Below, piece by piece: positions 9,026 to 58,183 of a stretch of 64,000 bases of DNA. Positions within the stretch are counted from its first letter, which is position 1; every line of letters begins with the position of its first letter. Source of the stretch: an uncultured Thermoplasmata archaeon (lineage in GTDB: Archaea > Thermoplasmatota > Thermoplasmata > RBG-16-68-12); contig CAVYJM010000011.1 of NCBI GenBank assembly GCA_963768855.1, forward strand, positions 160,001 to 224,000, in the 5' to 3' direction. Below the pieces are notes generated by a model. That model ran no database searches. It had not been told where the DNA came from and worked only from the letters and a program-made list of their open reading frames with translations. Made by a program: the position numbers and the translations under genes.

Positions 9026-10177
9026 CTACCATCCGTAGTGCTCGCAGAGCTCGAGGGCCCGCACCATGCCGAGGAACTCCCGGGCGTGGAGCAGGAGCCA
9101 CGGCCTGCGACGAACCGTACGGGCCGCGAACCGGAGGGACACGGCCCGCCAGTCGAGACCGTCCAGCTCCGCGCCCACATCGTCCATGAGTCGGTCGGAC
9201 CAACCCCGCACCCGCTCGATCATCCACCAGAGGATCGGGTCGAGGAAGGGCGAGTTCCTCAGGATCCGATCGTACCCGGACATCGCTGCCGGGTCCTCCT
9301 TCTCCAGCGCAGCCACGGCAAACTCGCCCGCGAGCCGCCCGCTGAACAGGCCCGGGTGGATGCCCGCCCCGTTCATGGGATTCGTGACGCCCGCGGCGTC
9401 GCCCACCACGGCGAAGCCCGGGATTGCGTAGCTGGTCAGGTCGTAGCGGTACGGGATCGTGCCTGCGATCGATCTGGCGGAGCGCGCGGGGTCCAGATGG
9501 TGGTCCCGGCAGAACGCCACGGTCGCCGCGTGCGCGTCGATGTGGCCCCCCGCGCCGACGTTGACGGCGTCGCCCTTCGGGAAGATCCAGGCGTATCCGC
9601 CGTCGTACCGTTCCCCGATGTAGAGGCGGAACCGGTCCGGGTCGGGGAGCTCGACCGCCTCCCGGGGGAAGCGATACTCGTACGCGAGGATTTGCTCCTG
9701 GCGCTGGACGAGGCCGAGGGTCTTCGCCACGAAGCTCGTGGGTCCGTCCGCGCCGATGAGGATCTTCGATTCGAAGGTCTGGCCGCCCGCGGTCACACGC
9801 CATCCGCCGTCGCGACGCTCCACGCCGGTGACCCTTGAGGAGGTCTGCAGCTCTGCGCCACGATCCACGGCGCCGCCGACGACCCACTGGTCGAACGCCA
9901 CCCGATTGATGGCATAGCCCGGGAGACGCGTGATGAAGAAGCTCTTCCCGCTCGGGACGATGCAGCAGGCGCCTTTGATCTCCTGCTCGACCCATGCGCC
10001 GTCGGCCCGGAGGCCATTCGACTCGAGGCCGAATCGGCTGACGCCTTCAGCGCACTGCACCGGCTCCCCGACGACTCGCTTCTTCTCCAGGACCAGGGTG
10101 GAGAAGCCTGCCGCCGCGAGGGGCCTCGCCGCCATCCCGCCTGCCGGTCCCGCCCCGACCACGATCGCGTCGTACAC
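9026..10177 (-). CDS. Geranylgeranyl reductase family FAD oxidoreductase
   Basis: YDAIVVGAGPAG, CAEG, IGADG, YAWIFPK, VGDAAG...GAGI. Confidence 0.85.
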   Translation of the reverse strand: MYDAIVVGAGPAGGMAARPLAAAGFSTLVLEKKRVVGEPVQCAEGVSRFGLESNGLRADGAWVEQEIKGACCIVPSGKSFFITRLPGYAINRVAFDQWVVGGAVDRGAELQTSSRVTGVERRDGGWRVTAGGQTFESKILIGADGPTSFVAKTLGLVQRQEQILAYEYRFPREAVELPDPDRFRLYIGERYDGGYAWIFPKGDAVNVGAGGHIDAHAATVAFCRDHHLDPARSARSIAGTIPYRYDLTSYAIPGFAVVGDAAGVTNPMNGAGIHPGLFSGRLAGEFAVAALEKEDPAAMSGYDRILRNSPFLDPILWWMIERVRGWSDRLMDDVGAELDGLDWRAVSLRFAARTVRRRPWLLLHAREFLGMVRALELCEHYGW

Positions 10178-47232: not shown

Positions 47233-47307
47233 GCTCCCGTAGTCTAGTCCGGTCAAGGATCGGGGCCTTTCGAGCCTCAGACGCGGGTTCGAATCCCGCC
47301 GGGAGCA
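47233..47307 (+). tRNA. tRNA-Glu (anticodon TTC), CCA not encoded
   Basis: Acceptor stem gctcccg/cgggagc, anticodon arm ggggc-ctTTCga-gcctc, T-arm gcggg-ttcgaat-cccgc; promoter-like aaaagcctttat at about 47194-47205. Confidence 0.95.
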
Positions 47308-47396
47308 TGATATTTTTTAGCACGGTGATGCACCGGTAGCATCATGTGTTGGTCAGTGACGAGCTATCTACTGGGGGATAGCGCGATCTTCACTGC

Positions 47397-47432
47397 GCCG
47401 TCGCTCCGCCGAGCGGCCCGAAGGGCTATGCC
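47397..47432 (+). repeat. Island intergenic repeat copy A
   Basis: gccgtcgctccgccgagcggcccgaagggctatgcc. Confidence 0.7.
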
Positions 47433-47512
47433 GAGATGGCAAGTCGGGAAGCTTCGCGAATGGCCAAGGTCCTTCTAAGGGTCCGCCTTGGGCGGGAGCA
47501 GGCGCATCCAGC

Positions 47513-49814: not shown

Positions 49815-50061
49815 ATTGTTCGGCCTTAACTCTTTTCCTCTTTAGCGTGGAAGGGGAAAGTGCCCGCACTTGCGGGTGGCTACCGGCACTGGCCGCATCG
49901 CGAGCAGTGCCACCGGCCGTTTTGCGGAATCTGGGCGAGGGATTGACCGCAAAGACTACAGCACGGCGGCCCGGTCCAAGGACCCTCAACCGTAGGACCG
50001 ATTCCCACCGGATGATCAGCGGGGATCGCTCGATACACGCGTGAGGCCACCTTTCGGTCCC

Positions 50062-50144
50062 GAGGAAGGTGTCCTGCCTCCGTCGCCCCCTCGCGGCCGG
50101 AAGGGCTTTGCCCGATGAGGTTCGAAGCCACATGACTTCGAACC
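50062..50144 (+). repeat. Island repeat copy B (full, with 9-8-9 palindrome)
   Basis: gaggaaggtgtcctgcctccgtcgccccctcgcggccggaagggctttgcccgatgaggttcgaag-ccacatga-cttcgaacc. Confidence 0.8.
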
Positions 50145-50194
50145 ACTGTGGAAATGAAGGCCCGACGGAGAGCCATCGGACCTCTTGGGCCAGG

Positions 50195-50460
50195 TTACGT
50201 GCGTGCAGGCACTGGGATAGCTGGTTGGATTCCCGCGAGCATTCTGTCAACGACTTCCTGGAAGTCACGCAGGGAGCGTAGCTCGCCGGCTTCCATGGCG
50301 CGACGGCCATAGGCCTCCATGAGCTCCGTGTCACGCCCCACGAGGATTGCTTCGGCCTCCGGAAGGAGTTCCTCCTCGAGCTTGATGTGCTCGCGCTGCA
50401 TCGTCAGGTACGTGTGCGCGGCCTCGAGGAAGGCTCTGCCCGCGGATGGGTCCGTTGACC
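50195..50460 (-). pseudogene. C-terminal remnant of a hemerythrin (HHE) protein
   Basis: FLEAAHTYLTMQREHIKLEEELLPEAEAIL resembles the second HHE half; the upstream part is not protein-like in frame. Confidence 0.45.
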
Positions 50461-50647
50461 CGAGCCCGAGTCCGTCGCCCACCTTGGGCGTGTCTCCCTC
50501 GCTCCCTGCCCTTGGACGGTCTGTGGGAGCCCGCGGTGCGCCCCAGCCGAGCGTCTCGCATGACCCTCCCTTGAGGTTCTCCGAAAATTGCAACCCGGGT
50601 TTCGAAACCTTCTTAAACGCCGCGCGTCGCTACCACTCGGAAGGCCG

Positions 50648-51208
50648 ATGTCATTCGAAACGGAGGACTGTCAGCACCTCGTCGCGGACGCGGGAGCCAT
50701 CCTGGATCGGGACGGCGTGACGGAGGCGAGCTTGAGGGCCGTCGGCTCGCGGATGCAGCGTATCGCGGGCGCCTTCGAACCTCGCACGGTCGCGGGCCTC
50801 AAAGCCCTTCACGGGACGGGGTCCTCGTCCACGGTCCTCCACAGCGAATCCGTGGACGGGCTCACCCTCGCTCTATCCCGATTCCCCCCAGAGGCCGCGA
50901 CCCCGGTCCACAACCACGGGACGTGGGGCGTCGCCCTCGTGATCGAAGGCAGGGACCACCACATCCACTGGCGCCGGATGGATGACGGCTTGACCCCCGG
51001 GCGCGCCAGGCTCGAGATCGATGCCGACGAGATCGTCCCGGGGGGCGAGTTCGTCTCCTGGCTCGGGCCGCCGGGAGACATCCACAGTCAGCAGGGCGTC
51101 TCGGGGCCGGTGTACGAGCTCGTCCTCTTTGGCCGTAACGTGATGGTCCATCCCCGCCTGTATTTCGACCCCGCCGCGGGGACGGTCCGCGAGCGCTTGC
51201 CCCAATGA
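50648..51208 (+). CDS. Cysteine dioxygenase-like cupin
   Basis: TPVHNHGTWG and GDIHS metal motifs. Confidence 0.8.
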   Translation: MSFETEDCQHLVADAGAILDRDGVTEASLRAVGSRMQRIAGAFEPRTVAGLKALHGTGSSSTVLHSESVDGLTLALSRFPPEAATPVHNHGTWGVALVIEGRDHHIHWRRMDDGLTPGRARLEIDADEIVPGGEFVSWLGPPGDIHSQQGVSGPVYELVLFGRNVMVHPRLYFDPAAGTVRERLPQ

Positions 51209-51213
51209 CGGGG

Positions 51214-51257
51214 GGCCCCGCCCCCTCGCTCCCGAGCGGCCGGAAGGTTCGTATCCC
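51214..51257 (+). repeat. Island repeat copy C
   Basis: ggccccgccccctcgctcccgagcggccggaaggttcgtatccc, directly after the stop at 51208. Confidence 0.8.
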
Positions 51258-51271
51258 CTGCGGATGATACT

Positions 51272-51607
51272 ATGTCGGAGCGGGTGCGTGTGAGAACCCC
51301 CCAGAAGGTGGGTGTGCTCGGCATCGTGCTGATTGTCGTAGGGGCATCCTTCACGGTTCTCCTTCCGTGGAGCGGGACGACGCTCAGCGGTGCCTCGTAC
51401 CCCGTAGGAGTCGCCTTCTTCGCGCTCGGCGGAGCCCTGTTCTTCGTCGGTGTTATCTGGGCATGGGTGGTCGGGTTTGCGAACGCCACACGGGCATGGG
51501 ATACGGTTCGACGGCCGCTGTTTTGCCCCGCGTGCGGCCAGCGGTATCCGGAGGAGCAGGGACACACCTGCCCGAAGGATGGCTCGGAACTGAGACCCGT
51601 GGCGTAG
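51272..51607 (+). CDS. Small membrane protein with C-terminal zinc ribbon
   Basis: Two TM segments, then FCPACG...CPKDG. Confidence 0.7.
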   Translation: MSERVRVRTPQKVGVLGIVLIVVGASFTVLLPWSGTTLSGASYPVGVAFFALGGALFFVGVIWAWVVGFANATRAWDTVRRPLFCPACGQRYPEEQGHTCPKDGSELRPVA

Positions 51608-51613
51608 GTGACT

Positions 51614-51637
51614 CCGAGTCGGCCGGAAGAGCTACGC
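51614..51637 (+). repeat. Island repeat copy H (degenerate, right half only)
   Basis: ccgagtcggccggaagagctacgc versus consensus ccgagcggccggaagggctatgc. Confidence 0.55.
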
Positions 51638-52384
51638 ATTGCAACCCTTTGGGCATCGCCAAGACCCGTCGCCACCATCGTGCTCGTCGAGGGACTCGAT
51701 GTCCGGGAGCCACGCCTGACCGCATTTTCGACATTGGACGATGATGCGCTGGGAACCAACGATGTCCACGACTTCGAAGAAGGCGGAAGCAGGCGGCCTC
51801 ACGCCTGAACGAAGAAAGAACCGCGGATAAGGTCTTGCAGCCGGGGGGGCGGATATGAGGAAAGGGCCGAGGTCCGCAATGGACCCCGGCGTGCAGGGGA
51901 ACAGGGCGTCGGCTAACGAAGCACGAGGAGCGTCTCGATAGCATTCTGCTAAATTGCCCGGCTCAGGCCTATCATCCCGAGCATAGTGTCAAAGTTCAAT
52001 CCTCGCTGATTGAAGTCCCTGGCACATCGTTTTCTCTCCATATGGAAGGCAACTCGCTATGGGTCCGGACGGACCTGTTCTCTCCATTAAGTCAGTCTAA
52101 GGGGAAAGTGAGGCGACCGGGGGTGCCCAATCGCCTCATGCGGGGACAGTAGACCAGACGACGAATCTCGCCTCCACGCGCTGATTGATTCCGGTTTGAA
52201 GGATTGACCACGAATCCGCACGACGGCGCTCCACCCATACGCCCGGTGCAGATTTGGCCTGTACCTGTCGTCAAGGTACCGACTAGACTCCCGTGGCACC
52301 TTTCCCCTTCATGCTGCGCCCTCGCGGGCGCGGCCCCTTCCGGGGCAAACAACGACTAAGTGCCGGGAGCTGCATCTCGCCAGC

Positions 52385-52579
52385 ATGGCTCTCAAGATGA
52401 GCGCGACGGGGATCATTGAGGTGTTCGTCTTTCTTGGCGTGGCAACCGTCGCCCTACTGCTGGTTGGGGTCGCGTCGAGCATGGAACAAGTCTTTCTTCT
52501 CGGCATTGGAGTTCTAATCCTAACTGGCATCATGGCCGGGGTTGTGGTCCTCTACAGGGCGCTCTCCAGCCCGGAGTAG
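52385..52579 (+). CDS. Small 2-TM membrane protein
   Basis: 64 aa, hydrophobic. Confidence 0.55.
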   Translation: MALKMSATGIIEVFVFLGVATVALLLVGVASSMEQVFLLGIGVLILTGIMAGVVVLYRALSSPE

Positions 52580-52597
52580 GCGGTCTCGAGCACGGGC

Positions 52598-52951
52598 ATG
52601 CTCGTGTTCGCCGCGATGTCGGGCTCGAGACCTCGGCTGCGGCGGTGGGGAGCCCTCCTCGGCCTCTTGGCCTTCGTCCTCGCACTCGTTGCGCTCCTCT
52701 ACGTCCTGGTGCTGCTCCCAGGAGCCGCGACTCAAGACATCGGGGCTCCCGCCATTCTGTACTCGGGCTTCTGGGGTTCCGGAGACTACTCATTCATGCA
52801 TGGAGGTGCAACCGTCACCTGGGGAGCAGGATGGGCCTGGTACGCGCTCATGGCCGCGGCCGTCCTGTCTCTGATTGGCGTCATCGTCCTGTTCCGCGCG
52901 CGGGCACCATCCTCCATGCAGGCCGCTCCGCAGGCAACACAGCAGCCGTAG
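52598..52951 (+). CDS. Small membrane protein ending QAAPQATQQP
   Basis: Two TM segments and a TWGAGWAWY motif. Confidence 0.65.
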   Translation: MLVFAAMSGSRPRLRRWGALLGLLAFVLALVALLYVLVLLPGAATQDIGAPAILYSGFWGSGDYSFMHGGATVTWGAGWAWYALMAAAVLSLIGVIVLFRARAPSSMQAAPQATQQP

Positions 52952-52954
52952 TCC

Positions 52955-53040
52955 AGAGGAGAGTGCCCCCGCCCCGTCGTCCCCCGAGCGGCCGGAAGGG
53001 CTATGCCTCGAAGAGGTTCGAAGTCACATGGATTCGAACC
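52955..53040 (+). repeat. Island repeat copy D (full, with 9-8-9 palindrome)
   Basis: agaggagagtgcccccgccccgtcgtcccccgagcggccggaagggctatgcctcgaagaggttcgaag-tcacatgg-attcgaacc. Confidence 0.85.
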
Positions 53041-53130
53041 CGCCGGGTCACGGTCCCCTCTAGGCTGGGGGAGGACCCTCGGGCCTGCCTCCGCTACAGT
53101 TAAGCGGGGACATCCCTTGGGCCGGCCCTG

Positions 53131-53967
53131 GTGACGCCCATGGTTCCGAGGACCGCGGGGGATGCCTCTCAGCTCTGGACCGCCTTCCGCCACCAGTCTC
53201 TCTTCTACTTGCGGACGAACCGGTTCCTCGGGCTCCTCGCTGTGACTGTCGCCTTGGCCGCCGTTTTCCTTGCTTTTGAGCTGTATGCCGGGACCGCCTC
53301 GGTTTTGGCGACGAACCCGACAGCTTCCTCCTATCTCGCAGGGTCCCTTGGAAGCGTGGGGTTCAGCGTGGCCCTCACCGCCGCGTTCTTCGGAGGCGAT
53401 GCGATCGCGAGGGACTTCGGGAGCGCCACGGGGTACTATGTCCTCGTCCTTCCCGTGCGTCGGAGGGTCCTGCTCCTGGGACGGTACCTCGCAGCCTCCC
53501 TGGTCTCGTTCGGGGTCTTGCTCTCCTACTACGCCATCGCGGCGGCGGGCACCTGGTACTTCTACGGGGGCCTCCCCATGACCCTGGCGGCCTCCCTCGG
53601 ACTCGGGGCGCTTCTCACCCTCGCGACCGTGGCCTTCGCGTTCTTCCTGAGCTCCCTCTTTCGGAACCCGTCCGTGAGCATGATCGTGACCGTCCTCCTC
53701 CTCTGGATCGCCCTGCCTACCATTACCAGCGCTGTTGGCGAATTCGGCGGCATCGAGCCTTGGCCGTCTTTGTCCTACGGCAGTAATGTCGTCACCTTGG
53801 TCTTCGCAGGGAGCTACGCTCACGACTCCCTCATGACGATTGGCCCCCTAACGTTCCATGTCTTCCAGCCCTACATCTGGGAGGGGATCGCCATCATGAT
53901 CGCGTACCTCGTGATTTTCCTCGCAATCGCGGGCCTCCTGTACCGTTACAAGGAGGTCCGCGGATGA
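53131..53967 (+). CDS. ABC-2 type exporter permease
   Basis: FFGGDAIARDFGSATGYYVLVLPVRR..LLGRY; 6 TM segments. Confidence 0.85.
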   Translation: MTPMVPRTAGDASQLWTAFRHQSLFYLRTNRFLGLLAVTVALAAVFLAFELYAGTASVLATNPTASSYLAGSLGSVGFSVALTAAFFGGDAIARDFGSATGYYVLVLPVRRRVLLLGRYLAASLVSFGVLLSYYAIAAAGTWYFYGGLPMTLAASLGLGALLTLATVAFAFFLSSLFRNPSVSMIVTVLLLWIALPTITSAVGEFGGIEPWPSLSYGSNVVTLVFAGSYAHDSLMTIGPLTFHVFQPYIWEGIAIMIAYLVIFLAIAGLLYRYKEVRG

Positions 53968-54902
53968 CGTCGGGACCGAGCCTCGAAGCGGCCGACCTCA
54001 GCAAGGCCTACGCCCGCGTACTCGCGCTCGACGGCGTGTCGTTCCGGTACGAGGGGCCGGGGGCGATTGGCTACCTCGGGCCCAACGGCGCGGGCAAGAC
54101 GACGACCCTCAAGCTGTTCACGAGCCTCCTCCGGCCGACTCGCGGGCGGGCGTTCGTTGACGGCATCGACGTTGCGAAGAATCCGAAGGCGGCCCTCGCG
54201 GATGTGGGCGCATTGATTGAAACCCCCGAGCCCTACCCACGTCAGAGCGTGGAGGAGGCCCTGCGGATGGTGGGGGAGTTCCGGGGCATACCAGCTGAGG
54301 AACTCCGGGAGCAGATTGGGAAGTACGTCGAGGCTTTGGATCTTCCGCCCCTCGACGCTCGGATTGGCAGCCTCTCGAAAGGCCAGAAGCAGAGGGTCGT
54401 CTTCGCGGCGACGCTCCTCGGGGACCCACGACTGCTCCTCCTCGACGAGCCGACGAACGGCCTCGACCCGGCGGAACGGGTCCGGGTACGCGAGGTGCTG
54501 CGGGACCTCAAGAAGGACCGCCTCATCTTCATGAGCTCCCATCTGCTCCAAGAGGTCACGGAGGTCTGCGACCGCGTGATGTTCCTGAACCGGGGCAAGG
54601 TCCTCCTCGAGGACTCTGTCGCTCACTTGGCGGATCGGTTCAAGGCGACGCGGGTTGATGTGGAATTCAGTGCTCCGGTCGCCATGAATCGCCTCAGCCC
54701 GCTGCAAGGCCTAGCCCTAGGGGTCATGGCCCTCTCGGACCGCCGGCTGCGGATCGAGTTCGACGGATCCACGGAAACCCGCACGAAAATCCTCGTCGCG
54801 TGCCAGGCCGTCGGCGCCGTCGTCTCCTTCAGCAGCGCCGGCCTCGCGCTTGAGGATGCGTACCTCCAGCTGCTTCAGGGTTCAGCCAACGGCGGCCGTT
54901 AG
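53964..54902 (+). CDS. ABC transporter ATP-binding protein
   Basis: GPNGAGKTT, LSKGQKQR, LLLDEPTNGLD, SSHLL. Confidence 0.92.
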   Translation: MTSGPSLEAADLSKAYARVLALDGVSFRYEGPGAIGYLGPNGAGKTTTLKLFTSLLRPTRGRAFVDGIDVAKNPKAALADVGALIETPEPYPRQSVEEALRMVGEFRGIPAEELREQIGKYVEALDLPPLDARIGSLSKGQKQRVVFAATLLGDPRLLLLDEPTNGLDPAERVRVREVLRDLKKDRLIFMSSHLLQEVTEVCDRVMFLNRGKVLLEDSVAHLADRFKATRVDVEFSAPVAMNRLSPLQGLALGVMALSDRRLRIEFDGSTETRTKILVACQAVGAVVSFSSAGLALEDAYLQLLQGSANGGR

Positions 54903-54960
54903 CCCCAGCAGGCAACCCACCGGGCGGGCCGCTCCAAACGCAACCCAGCAGCTGTAGCCA

Positions 54961-55049
54961 AGAGGGAAGGTGCCCTCGCCCCGTTCGCCCCCGAGCGGCC
55001 GGAAGGGCATTATCCCCGGTGAAGTGCGAAATCACATGGAATCGAACCC
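54961..55049 (+). repeat. Island repeat copy E (full, degenerate palindrome)
   Basis: agagggaaggtgccctcgccccgttcgcccccgagcggccggaagggcattatccccggtgaagtgcgaaa-tcacatgg-aatcgaaccc. Confidence 0.85.
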
Positions 55050-55186
55050 ACGAGTTCGCTACTGATGTGTCAAGGGCGTCTTCGATGGCCGCCCACGCTA
55101 CTCCGACCTGAATCGGATGGCTCACGAGGTGCTAGCCGAACCTCGTGACGACGACCGCGACGGCAATCCAGAGGACGGCCGCTTTG

Positions 55187-57267: not shown

Positions 57268-57485
57268 TCCACGAGGATCGGTACATAGTTCGCCGGGGTT
57301 GAGAGGCCTCTGCCTGCAGGGACAGGACATCGGTAGGCGTCGGCCTTGAGTCCTGGCAACTACCCGTCCATTGACTCGGATTTCAGAGGTATAGAGCAAA
57401 TCCGCACGACGGCAAACCTTGAGAACATGCAGAAAAGGCCGGGGCTTCGCTGCCACCCGTCGGAGACCATGTGCACAGAGGCTCT

Positions 57486-57585
57486 CCGCCGGGAGCACTC
57501 TCACACGAGGTCCTTTTTCCGGTAGCAGATGGGAAGGCCAACGGTAGCAACCTAACACTAGGTCGATCTTCCGGTAGCAGATGGG
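57486..57585 (+). repeat. tRNA-Glu 3' 12-mer duplicate plus cggtagca direct repeats
   Basis: ccgccgggagca is identical to 47296-47307. ttccggtagcagatggg occurs at 57517 and 57569, and cggtagca at 57542. Confidence 0.6.
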
Positions 57586-57599
57586 CCGGGGCTTATCCC

Positions 57600-57645
57600 G
57601 CTTCCACCCCATTTCCGCTCGCCGGAGCGGCCGGAAGGGCTATGG
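57600..57645 (+). repeat. Island repeat copy F
   Basis: gcttccaccccatttccgctcgccggagcggccggaagggctatgg; perfect ccgctc/gagcgg inner stem. Confidence 0.75.
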
Positions 57646-57677
57646 CGTGACCGGTCGATGCGGCTGCAGGGGGTGGA

Positions 57678-58037
57678 GTGATGCAACCGAATACGACAGA
57701 AAGCGGTCCGTCCGAGACACCATGCCGCGCTTGCGGCTCATCTGCGCGGTTGGTGGGGACCGAGCAATTTCGTGTAGGAGGCACGTCCGGTGGCTGGAAG
57801 CTGCTGTTCGGTGAATGGGCCGAGCTGGGCGAGGAGATGATGCCCCTTGAGATGTGGGTGTGCCCTTCCTGCCGTCGAGTAGAATTCCGAGTCCCCGTGG
57901 GCTACAAGCGACCGGATGAGGTCGCGCGGGGACTGCGATACGCATGTCCAGGATGTGGCGGCGATGTTTATCACGGTCAGACCGCGTGTCCCGAGTGCGG
58001 CTACGTGTTGAAGGATTCCCCCACGTCAGAGGGGTAA
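57678..58037 (+). CDS. Double zinc-ribbon protein
   Basis: CRACG, GGWKLLFGEW, VCPSC, CPGCG, CPECG. Confidence 0.7.
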   Translation: MMQPNTTESGPSETPCRACGSSARLVGTEQFRVGGTSGGWKLLFGEWAELGEEMMPLEMWVCPSCRRVEFRVPVGYKRPDEVARGLRYACPGCGGDVYHGQTACPECGYVLKDSPTSEG

Positions 58038-58083
58038 GGTCCCCCGCCCCGTCGCGCCCGCAAGCGGCCGGAAGGGCAATGCC
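58028..58083 (+). repeat. Island repeat copy G (overlaps the upstream stop codon)
   Basis: agaggggtaaggtcccccgccccgtcgcgcccgcaagcggccggaagggcaatgcc. Confidence 0.8.
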
Positions 58084-58183
58084 GGGACGGGCGAAGGGAG
58101 GATGGCGCGTCGCCGAACAACGACGAAGAAGGAGGAGGGAGGCTTACGCATGTTTAAGGTCTAGGGCGACGTCCACTCGGTTT

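Follow-up and report, generated by a model that had tools for sequence, protein, structure and literature searches.

The window analysed here is a 64,000-nt stretch (C11:160001-224000) of G000, a metagenome-assembled genome (MAG) of an uncultured Thermoplasmata archaeon that comprises 2.87 Mb in 24 contigs and is 93.6% complete. Past a tRNA-Glu gene, the window carries three copies of a palindromic 26-bp element, designated B, D and E, with gene blocks between them. Reading the sequence directly gave strings and coordinates identical to those of the initial annotation, and the layout described there, in which inverted arms surround an asymmetric and conserved 6-8-bp centre, was borne out and is that of a conserved family. 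The three sites are the following.

50119..50144, plus strand: palindrome B, GGTTCGAAG-CCACATGA-CTTCGAACC, arms matching at 9/9 positions
53015..53040, plus strand: palindrome D, GGTTCGAAG-TCACATGG-ATTCGAACC, arms matching at 8/9 positions
55023..55048, plus strand: palindrome E, agtgcgaaa-tcacatgg-aatcgaacc, decayed with 4 changes, arms matching at 5/9 positions

The CACATG centre is identical in B, D and E, which are co-oriented on the plus strand and spaced by 2.9 and 2.0 kb. A degenerate pattern matched only these three sites in the window, where 0.00 matches are expected (100 shuffles). The site can be read as 9-8-9 or as 10-6-10 with two inner mismatches. A short open reading frame (ORF) starts at the spacer ATG; when B, D and E were read directly, neither its length nor its sequence was conserved.

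The discrete 26-bp family has the sequence GGTTCGAAG-TCACATGG-ATTCGAACC. D equals its consensus, with identical copies in G009 (like G013 and G014, another genome of the genus; G023, G075 and G076 below are further genomes of the comparison) and on two contigs of one Joint Genome Institute (JGI) metagenome. The source genome holds six members, among them B, D, E, a copy at C12:115282 (spacer CATATG) and a diverged one at C11:240855, and further members occur in G009 (one), G013 (two) and G014 (one). The initial annotation had overlooked these copies at C12:115282, at C11:240855 and in other genomes, as well as the fact that the sites are the tail of a longer repeat. We aligned eleven copies, from G000, G009, G013, G014 and the metagenome contigs. 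Invariant columns make up 12/26 of this alignment. The right arm ATTCGAACC hardly varies; changes are more frequent in the left arm, and none of them is compensatory. This pattern fits protein recognition of duplex DNA better than a hairpin.

With up to 2 mismatches allowed, the 26-mer was present in 4/38 genomes of the genus and in 0/41 genomes from elsewhere in the order. MAG incompleteness weakens this presence test but is insufficient to account for the 34 misses in the genus. Among 185,579 species, an exact 26-mer match was found only on the G009 contig, and the palindrome was absent from the viral contigs that were scanned.

The family has sharp edges. Four 26-mers are identical with unrelated flanks on either side, and flanks unrelated on both sides were found in at least seven contexts. 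Where the C12 copy of G000 is compared with G009 contig C196, ~100 nt are common to the left and homology ends at the last base of the palindrome; the repeat units of B, D and E likewise end at ...GAACC. The genes beside the copies are heterogeneous and encode Lrp-type helix-turn-helix (HTH), SnoaL-like, DtxR-type repressor with ZnuA, AAA-TPR and DUF1761 proteins. The SnoaL-like neighbours of B and of the G014 copy were considered as homologues, and their comparison showed that they are not homologous. No target-site duplication or duplicated flank was found at any of ten copies, and only 8 nt lie between the arms. We rejected an identity as the end of a miniature inverted-repeat transposable element (MITE) or insertion sequence (IS), as an enclosing element and a target-site duplication were not found.

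B, D and E each lie 12-14 nt past a core repeat of ~55 nt (GAGCGGCCGGAAGGGCTATGCC; consensus GA(A/G)GGTGCCCCCGCCCCGTCGCCCCCGAGCGGCCGGAAGGGCTATGCC) and form the right end of a longer, co-oriented composite of core and palindrome. Seven plus-strand cores lie at 47.4-58.1 kb of the window, about 22 are present in G000, and several genomes of the same genus have one or two. Two further core collections, based on regular expressions, were discarded because coding matches polluted both. The cores and associated features are arranged as follows.

47233..47307, plus strand: tRNA-Glu(UUC); homology to relatives ends 0-26 nt past it (47307-47333)
47378..47437, plus strand: first core, 71 nt past tRNA-Glu (profile match), with GCGGCC at 47413, 106 nt past the tRNA
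50060..50112, plus strand: core directly 5' of B
51202..51255, plus strand: core without a palindrome
52911..53047, plus strand: left ~135-nt direct repeat (gene tail, core and D), which with its right counterpart brackets the ABC exporter pair
52953..53011, plus strand: core directly 5' of D
53030..53047, plus strand: right arm of D and its flank, similar to tRNA-Glu between the T-loop and acceptor position 69, with CCCGCCGGG identical
53131..54902, plus strand: ABC-2 permease and ABC ATPase, the block between D and E
54917..55050, plus strand: right ~135-nt direct repeat, ending in E
54959..55015, plus strand: core directly 5' of E
57486..57497, plus strand: CCGCCGGGAGCA, an exact 12-nt duplicate of the tRNA-Glu 3' end, with CGGTAGCA boxes after it
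57596..57650, plus strand: core closing a ~165-nt att-like repeat
58027..58087, plus strand: last core of the array

Homology to five relatives stops just past tRNA-Glu and returns near 58.8 kb at a GalT-type gene, and the 11.5-kb stretch that follows the tRNA has no collinear counterpart in them. The genes of this stretch encode an ABC exporter, an alcohol-dehydrogenase-family oxidoreductase, HSP20 and small membrane or zinc-ribbon proteins, and they are scattered on other contigs of the relatives at 66-83% identity. G076 carries a different insert of 15.8 kb at its tRNA-Glu; 31 nt comprising the tRNA 3' end and flank are duplicated at its boundary. In the window, the 12-nt copy at 57486-57497 is probably an old attR. 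It opens a ~165-nt direct repeat (window 57486-57650 and G000 C11:227944-228105) in which the last 12 nt of tRNA-Glu come first, three CGGTAGCA boxes follow and a core comes last; the two copies bracket a 10.4-kb alpha-glucan/GalT block. On these alignments, B, D and E lie inside an accretion island anchored at tRNA-Glu.

A second island provided a point of comparison. At tRNA-Val(GAC), G000 carries a 21-kb island (C11:236481-257518; L044, L045) bounded by a 24-nt direct repeat, CCGGTTCGAATCCGGTCGAGCCCA, that runs from the T-stem to the tRNA 3' end; G013 and G076 lack the island. The diverged copy at C11:240855 lies 4.3 kb inside it, 32 nt past a degenerate core. The tRNA-Val attR reads GATTCGAA-CCGGTTCCGG-TTCGAATCC followed by the tRNA 3' end, an inverted T-arm copy with two TTCGAA boxes 10 nt apart (N10). 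Of the two island arms, P has a T-arm copy in inverted and P' one in direct orientation. This box spacing is exactly that of B, D and E, whose inverted half-sites thus share the spacing of a proven att site of the same genome. Across G000, TTCGAA-Nx-TTCGAA is found six times with x=10, and no other x from 0 to 30 gives more than one occurrence. We regard the attR geometry together with the N10 enrichment as the strongest support for reading the palindromes as putative recombination sites. No PF00589 integrase was detected inside the tRNA-Val island.

The right side of D, GGATTCGAACCCGCCGGG (53030-53047), matches tRNA-Glu at 47285-47303 (GGGTTCGAATCCCGCCGGG) with one substitution and one gap, as had been claimed, and the 9 nt past the T-loop in D (CCCGCCGGG) equal those of tRNA-Glu. 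A prefix so long to any G000 tRNA is found at 0.46% of random CC-starting positions, which amounts to ~5% over ten sites and to less than ~5% if the neighbouring tRNA is demanded. The match of this flank to the neighbouring tRNA-Glu is suggestive and, over ten sites, not conclusive. On the minus strand, D has 14 nt (GCGGGTTCGAATCC) in common with the T-arm of tRNA-Glu because TTCGAA is itself palindromic. We also considered the sites as truncated tRNAs on the minus strand and rejected this, as their T-stem partners are unpaired and ARAGORN finds none.

The cores themselves are linked to tRNAs. They lie near tRNA-Glu in G000 and G013 and also near tRNA-Cys and tRNA-Arg. At tRNA-Thr(CGU) (C6:744520-744593), G000 has an insert of ~1 kb directly after the tRNA (cassette span C6:743480-744593; L027:~485-1594), with a 13-nt duplication of the tRNA 3' end (CCCTGCGGTGGCT) on its flanks; in G076 the site is empty and followed by the same downstream gene. 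The insert has a core at its start, ends ~35 nt past a degenerate core and carries no integrase. The same cassette occurs in G009 at 91% identity in another context, with homology beginning inside the core. From the tRNA-Thr cassette and the tRNA-near cores we therefore read the cores as boundaries of small mobile cassettes whose entry points are the 3' ends of tRNAs. Core positions are compatible with both a promoter and a terminator, and the alifold consensus of the core as a structured element was weak and without compensatory pairs. A 37-nt GC hairpin repeat, AGYGAAGGTGCCCGCCCTTGCGGGCGGGCRTGAGGGG, occurs at L001:9186-9222 and 9960-9996 (G000 C12) and also in G009, G013, G075 and G076; it and the core begin alike, with GAAGGTGCCC.

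We interpret B, D and E as simple crossover or binding sites for a tyrosine-type recombinase that is encoded elsewhere and acts in trans, an interpretation to which we give a probability of about 0.42. Two inverted half-sites on TTCGAA, the tRNA T-loop core, would surround the asymmetric CACATG, which would give the site a direction. A circular block with one site would recombine with a resident site. The outcome would be a block between two directly repeated sites, as in B-D-E, and sites would swap their flanks, as the comparison of genomes shows. The sequences show the family with its sharp edges, the direct orientation of the sites, their location in tRNA-linked islands and the geometry in common with a verified att site; binding or cleavage by a recombinase, the identity of this enzyme and present activity of the sites are inferred. 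The proposed link to a tRNA-targeting integrase is partly upheld: the island starts at tRNA-Glu and the tRNA-Val attR has equal geometry, but the window contains no integrase and D is no clean att duplicate.

Several observations weigh against a recombination site. PF00589 had no match in C11:160001-224000, and no integrase adjoins any copy among the neighbour genes in G000 and the other genomes. Neither a recombination junction at the spacer nor an excision product was found in the public runs, which consist only of short Logan contigs at a depth of 2-30 and cannot place a spacer crossover; stretches that they leave uncovered carry no evidence either way. After TTCGAA-CCCGCCGGG, D reads TCAC where tRNA-Glu reads AGCA, and the last 4 nt of the tRNA are missing; the flank ends 4 nt before the tRNA 3' end and is therefore no clean att duplicate, and its tRNA-like character may be due to chance (about 5% family-wise). 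All copies have an identical right arm, GGATTCGAACC, which was therefore not taken from individual tRNAs. Since the core-palindrome junction is common to all three, B, D and E go back to one ancestral composite, and the 135-nt repeats of D and E could have arisen or recombined by plain homologous recombination. The decay of E roughly equals that of its flanks (85% vs 82-86%); by this measure it is not under constraint, and it looks dead. Finally, two of the six N10 matches are promoter-like. One, at C18:128305-128332 (L046), reads ATTCGAA-TATATACGG-ATTCGAAAT, has TATATA in its spacer and lies upstream of a DoxX gene; this palindrome is kept in G009, G013, G023 and G076 and is likely an operator over a promoter. 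The other lies between divergent LCM-methyltransferase and GyrI-like genes.

The decay of E and the common composite recur in a passive account, in which an inert end-piece (MITE-like or a relic) spread with core-bearing cassettes as a dispersed repeat, is now decaying and has no present function of its own. We consider this somewhat unlikely. It would account for the few copies per genome, confined to the G000-G009-G013-G014 group, for the equal decay of E and its flanks and for the duplication of one composite into B, D and E, and the genus has several other small dispersed repeats. However, a 26-bp unit in at least seven unrelated contexts demands a mechanism that moves or recreates exactly that unit, solo copies lack a target-site duplication or a longer surrounding element, and four copies are identical across genomes despite their unrelated flanks. 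That a dimeric transcription factor acts on TTCGAA-N10-TTCGAA and regulates downstream genes is quite improbable. The spacer and the outer GG/CC are conserved letter for letter in unrelated contexts, a pattern accounted for by common descent and not by a role as an operator. Such an operator agrees with palindromic half-sites 16 bp apart, centre to centre, with D lying 91 nt upstream of the ABC permease, and with the G009 copy lying 73 nt upstream of a DtxR-type repressor/ZnuA operon. The two other N10 sites in promoter regions (DoxX; LCM-methyltransferase/GyrI-like) also agree with it, but they have ATTCGAA arms and not GGTTCGAA. Gene positions are inconsistent: the G013:C211 copy sits between convergent ends, the one on L010 lies 356 nt past a gene with none following, and the one on L004 lies 357 nt upstream. 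The neighbour genes, moreover, are unrelated.

A folded element, either a 3'-end, processing or stability hairpin of the upstream transcript or an attC-like or repetitive extragenic palindromic (REP)-like single-strand substrate, is very unlikely. B forms a 9-bp stem (DNA z = -2.9 on the plus and -3.3 on the minus strand), and the composite usually lies past the end of a co-oriented gene. Against this, compensatory changes were seen at 0/9 pairs over 8 distinct sequences, each variant breaks a pair, the loop is as strongly conserved as the stem, and D and E are no more stable than shuffles (z = -1.3 and -1.05). A downstream T-run is also missing, and Rfam searches of the window (gathering threshold) and of the C12 copy region (E-value threshold) returned only tRNAs and noise. 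The initial annotation had named XerA as a candidate enzyme, which would make the palindromes chromosomal dif sites. Archaeal dif has 11-bp inverted arms and a 6-bp spacer and is single-copy and conserved among relatives (PMC2958812), and the 10-6-10 reading with its CACATG spacer resembles this 11-6-11 layout. We nevertheless reject the dif/XerA reading, which is barely credible for an element that G000 carries six times, with three of the copies inside 5 kb, and that has a distribution restricted to one clade (4/38 genomes of the genus). An XerA-grade protein was also not detected: the best protein scored 84 bits against the cut-off of 220 for the XerA equivalog NF040815, and XerA is possibly unassembled in this 93.6% complete genome. 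The best XerA-like match in the assembly, itself sub-threshold, is a 260-aa tyrosine recombinase (C11:26525-27307; L040) that consists of the catalytic domain only and is split by an insertion of ~110 aa.

Among known systems, sites of the loxP/FRT type and the pdif modules of Acinetobacter plasmids have short inverted arms and an asymmetric 6-8-bp centre; pdif sites, to which XerC/XerD bind, occur in alternating orientation. Several copies of such sites delimit small gene modules with the recombinase encoded elsewhere, as we propose here. Unlike pdif, the copies described here are in direct orientation, the host is an archaeon and the enzyme is putative. The resemblance to archaeal dif/XerA (PMC2958812) is limited to an imperfect inverted repeat with a 6-bp centre, whereas the 26-mer is multi-copy, clade-restricted, present in few genomes of the genus and located in accessory islands. 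The att sites of tRNA-targeting tyrosine integrases (T-loop sublocation, PMC8371274) have in common with our element tRNA-linked islands, T-arm-like half-sites and the tRNA-Val attR geometry. Archaeal integrated elements are known to accrete in tandem and to lose their integrase gene (PMC8371274). The 26-mer differs from these att sites in lacking an adjacent integrase, in being the same whichever tRNA is nearby, in having no tRNA 3' end that would rebuild a tRNA, and in lying inside islands or between cassettes and not only at their ends. None of B, D and E is a direct repeat that closes the island with the full 3' end of the tRNA; the clean 12-nt copy lies elsewhere (57486-57497).

Integron arrays and clusters of attC sites lacking integron-integrases (CALINs), including archaeal ones (10.1101/2022.02.06.479319), resemble the locus in that co-oriented repeats part small unrelated genes, the integrase is not adjoining and the repeat lies just 3' of many ORFs. 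They differ in their R''/R' GTTRRRY boxes and IntI, which are absent here, where we find a 26-bp palindrome with a conserved loop and a tRNA anchor instead of attI. An identity as integron attC was rejected: the arms are GTTCGAA / TTCGAAC, position 4 is C and not a purine, the order is inverted, and there is neither RYYYAAC...GTTRRRY nor IntI (TIGR02249; best match 52 bits against a cut-off of 265). A possible but unlikely extension of the trans-acting site would be an integron-like but unrelated system of small integrase-less cassettes that have the ~55-nt core as their boundaries and build co-oriented arrays by insertion at tRNA 3' ends. In it, the 26-bp palindrome would be a second, lox-like crossover site at which a recombinase of the host or of an element shuffles whole blocks between tRNA-linked islands.

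Other observations concern the surroundings of these sites. G000 encodes six tyrosine recombinases. Two paralogous tyrosine integrases of ~410 aa with the same N-terminus lie at C6:1041517-1042767 and C12:105820-107046, adjoining tRNA-Asn and tRNA-Ser, and integrase genes also adjoin a tRNA-Ser (C6:128078) and a tRNA-Asp (C18). A tRNA-Ser with an integrase gene beside it lies 9.5 kb from the copy at C12:115282; we considered this copy as the attR of the integrase-bearing element and rejected this, as no tRNA-Ser 3'-end repeat is nearby. Also on C12, three GGATT(C/T)GAACC boxes (the minus-strand T-loop motif) lie within 250 nt (L001:10060-10310), ending in the palindrome; they received no tRNA call and may be tRNA-like or an arm-site cluster. 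In the window, a non-coding stretch of ~130 nt past the HSP20 gene (57315-57447) has counterparts at 84-88% identity on contig C8 of G000 and in five or more further genomes of the genus; it could represent a conserved small RNA or a further mobile repeat. Among the public runs, one contig of run X2, from a second study, connects position 47325 in the flank of tRNA-Glu with 53015, where D begins. Its shorter side covers 23 nt, and it hints weakly at a relative in which the palindrome lies near tRNA-Glu. Many apparent joints in the runs lie at conserved ABC ATPase motifs or core repeats and are alignment effects of relatives.

If the palindrome is only a decaying repeat, the finding is an ordinary one. 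If it is an active recombination site, it would give a concrete, testable sequence for the exchange of gene blocks in an uncultured archaeal class whose mobile-element biology is almost unknown. It would also be a recombinase site that mimics the tRNA T-arm without belonging to a tRNA. Together with the core repeat and the tRNA-Thr cassette, it would point to tRNA-anchored cassette arrays as a route by which these archaea gain accessory genes.

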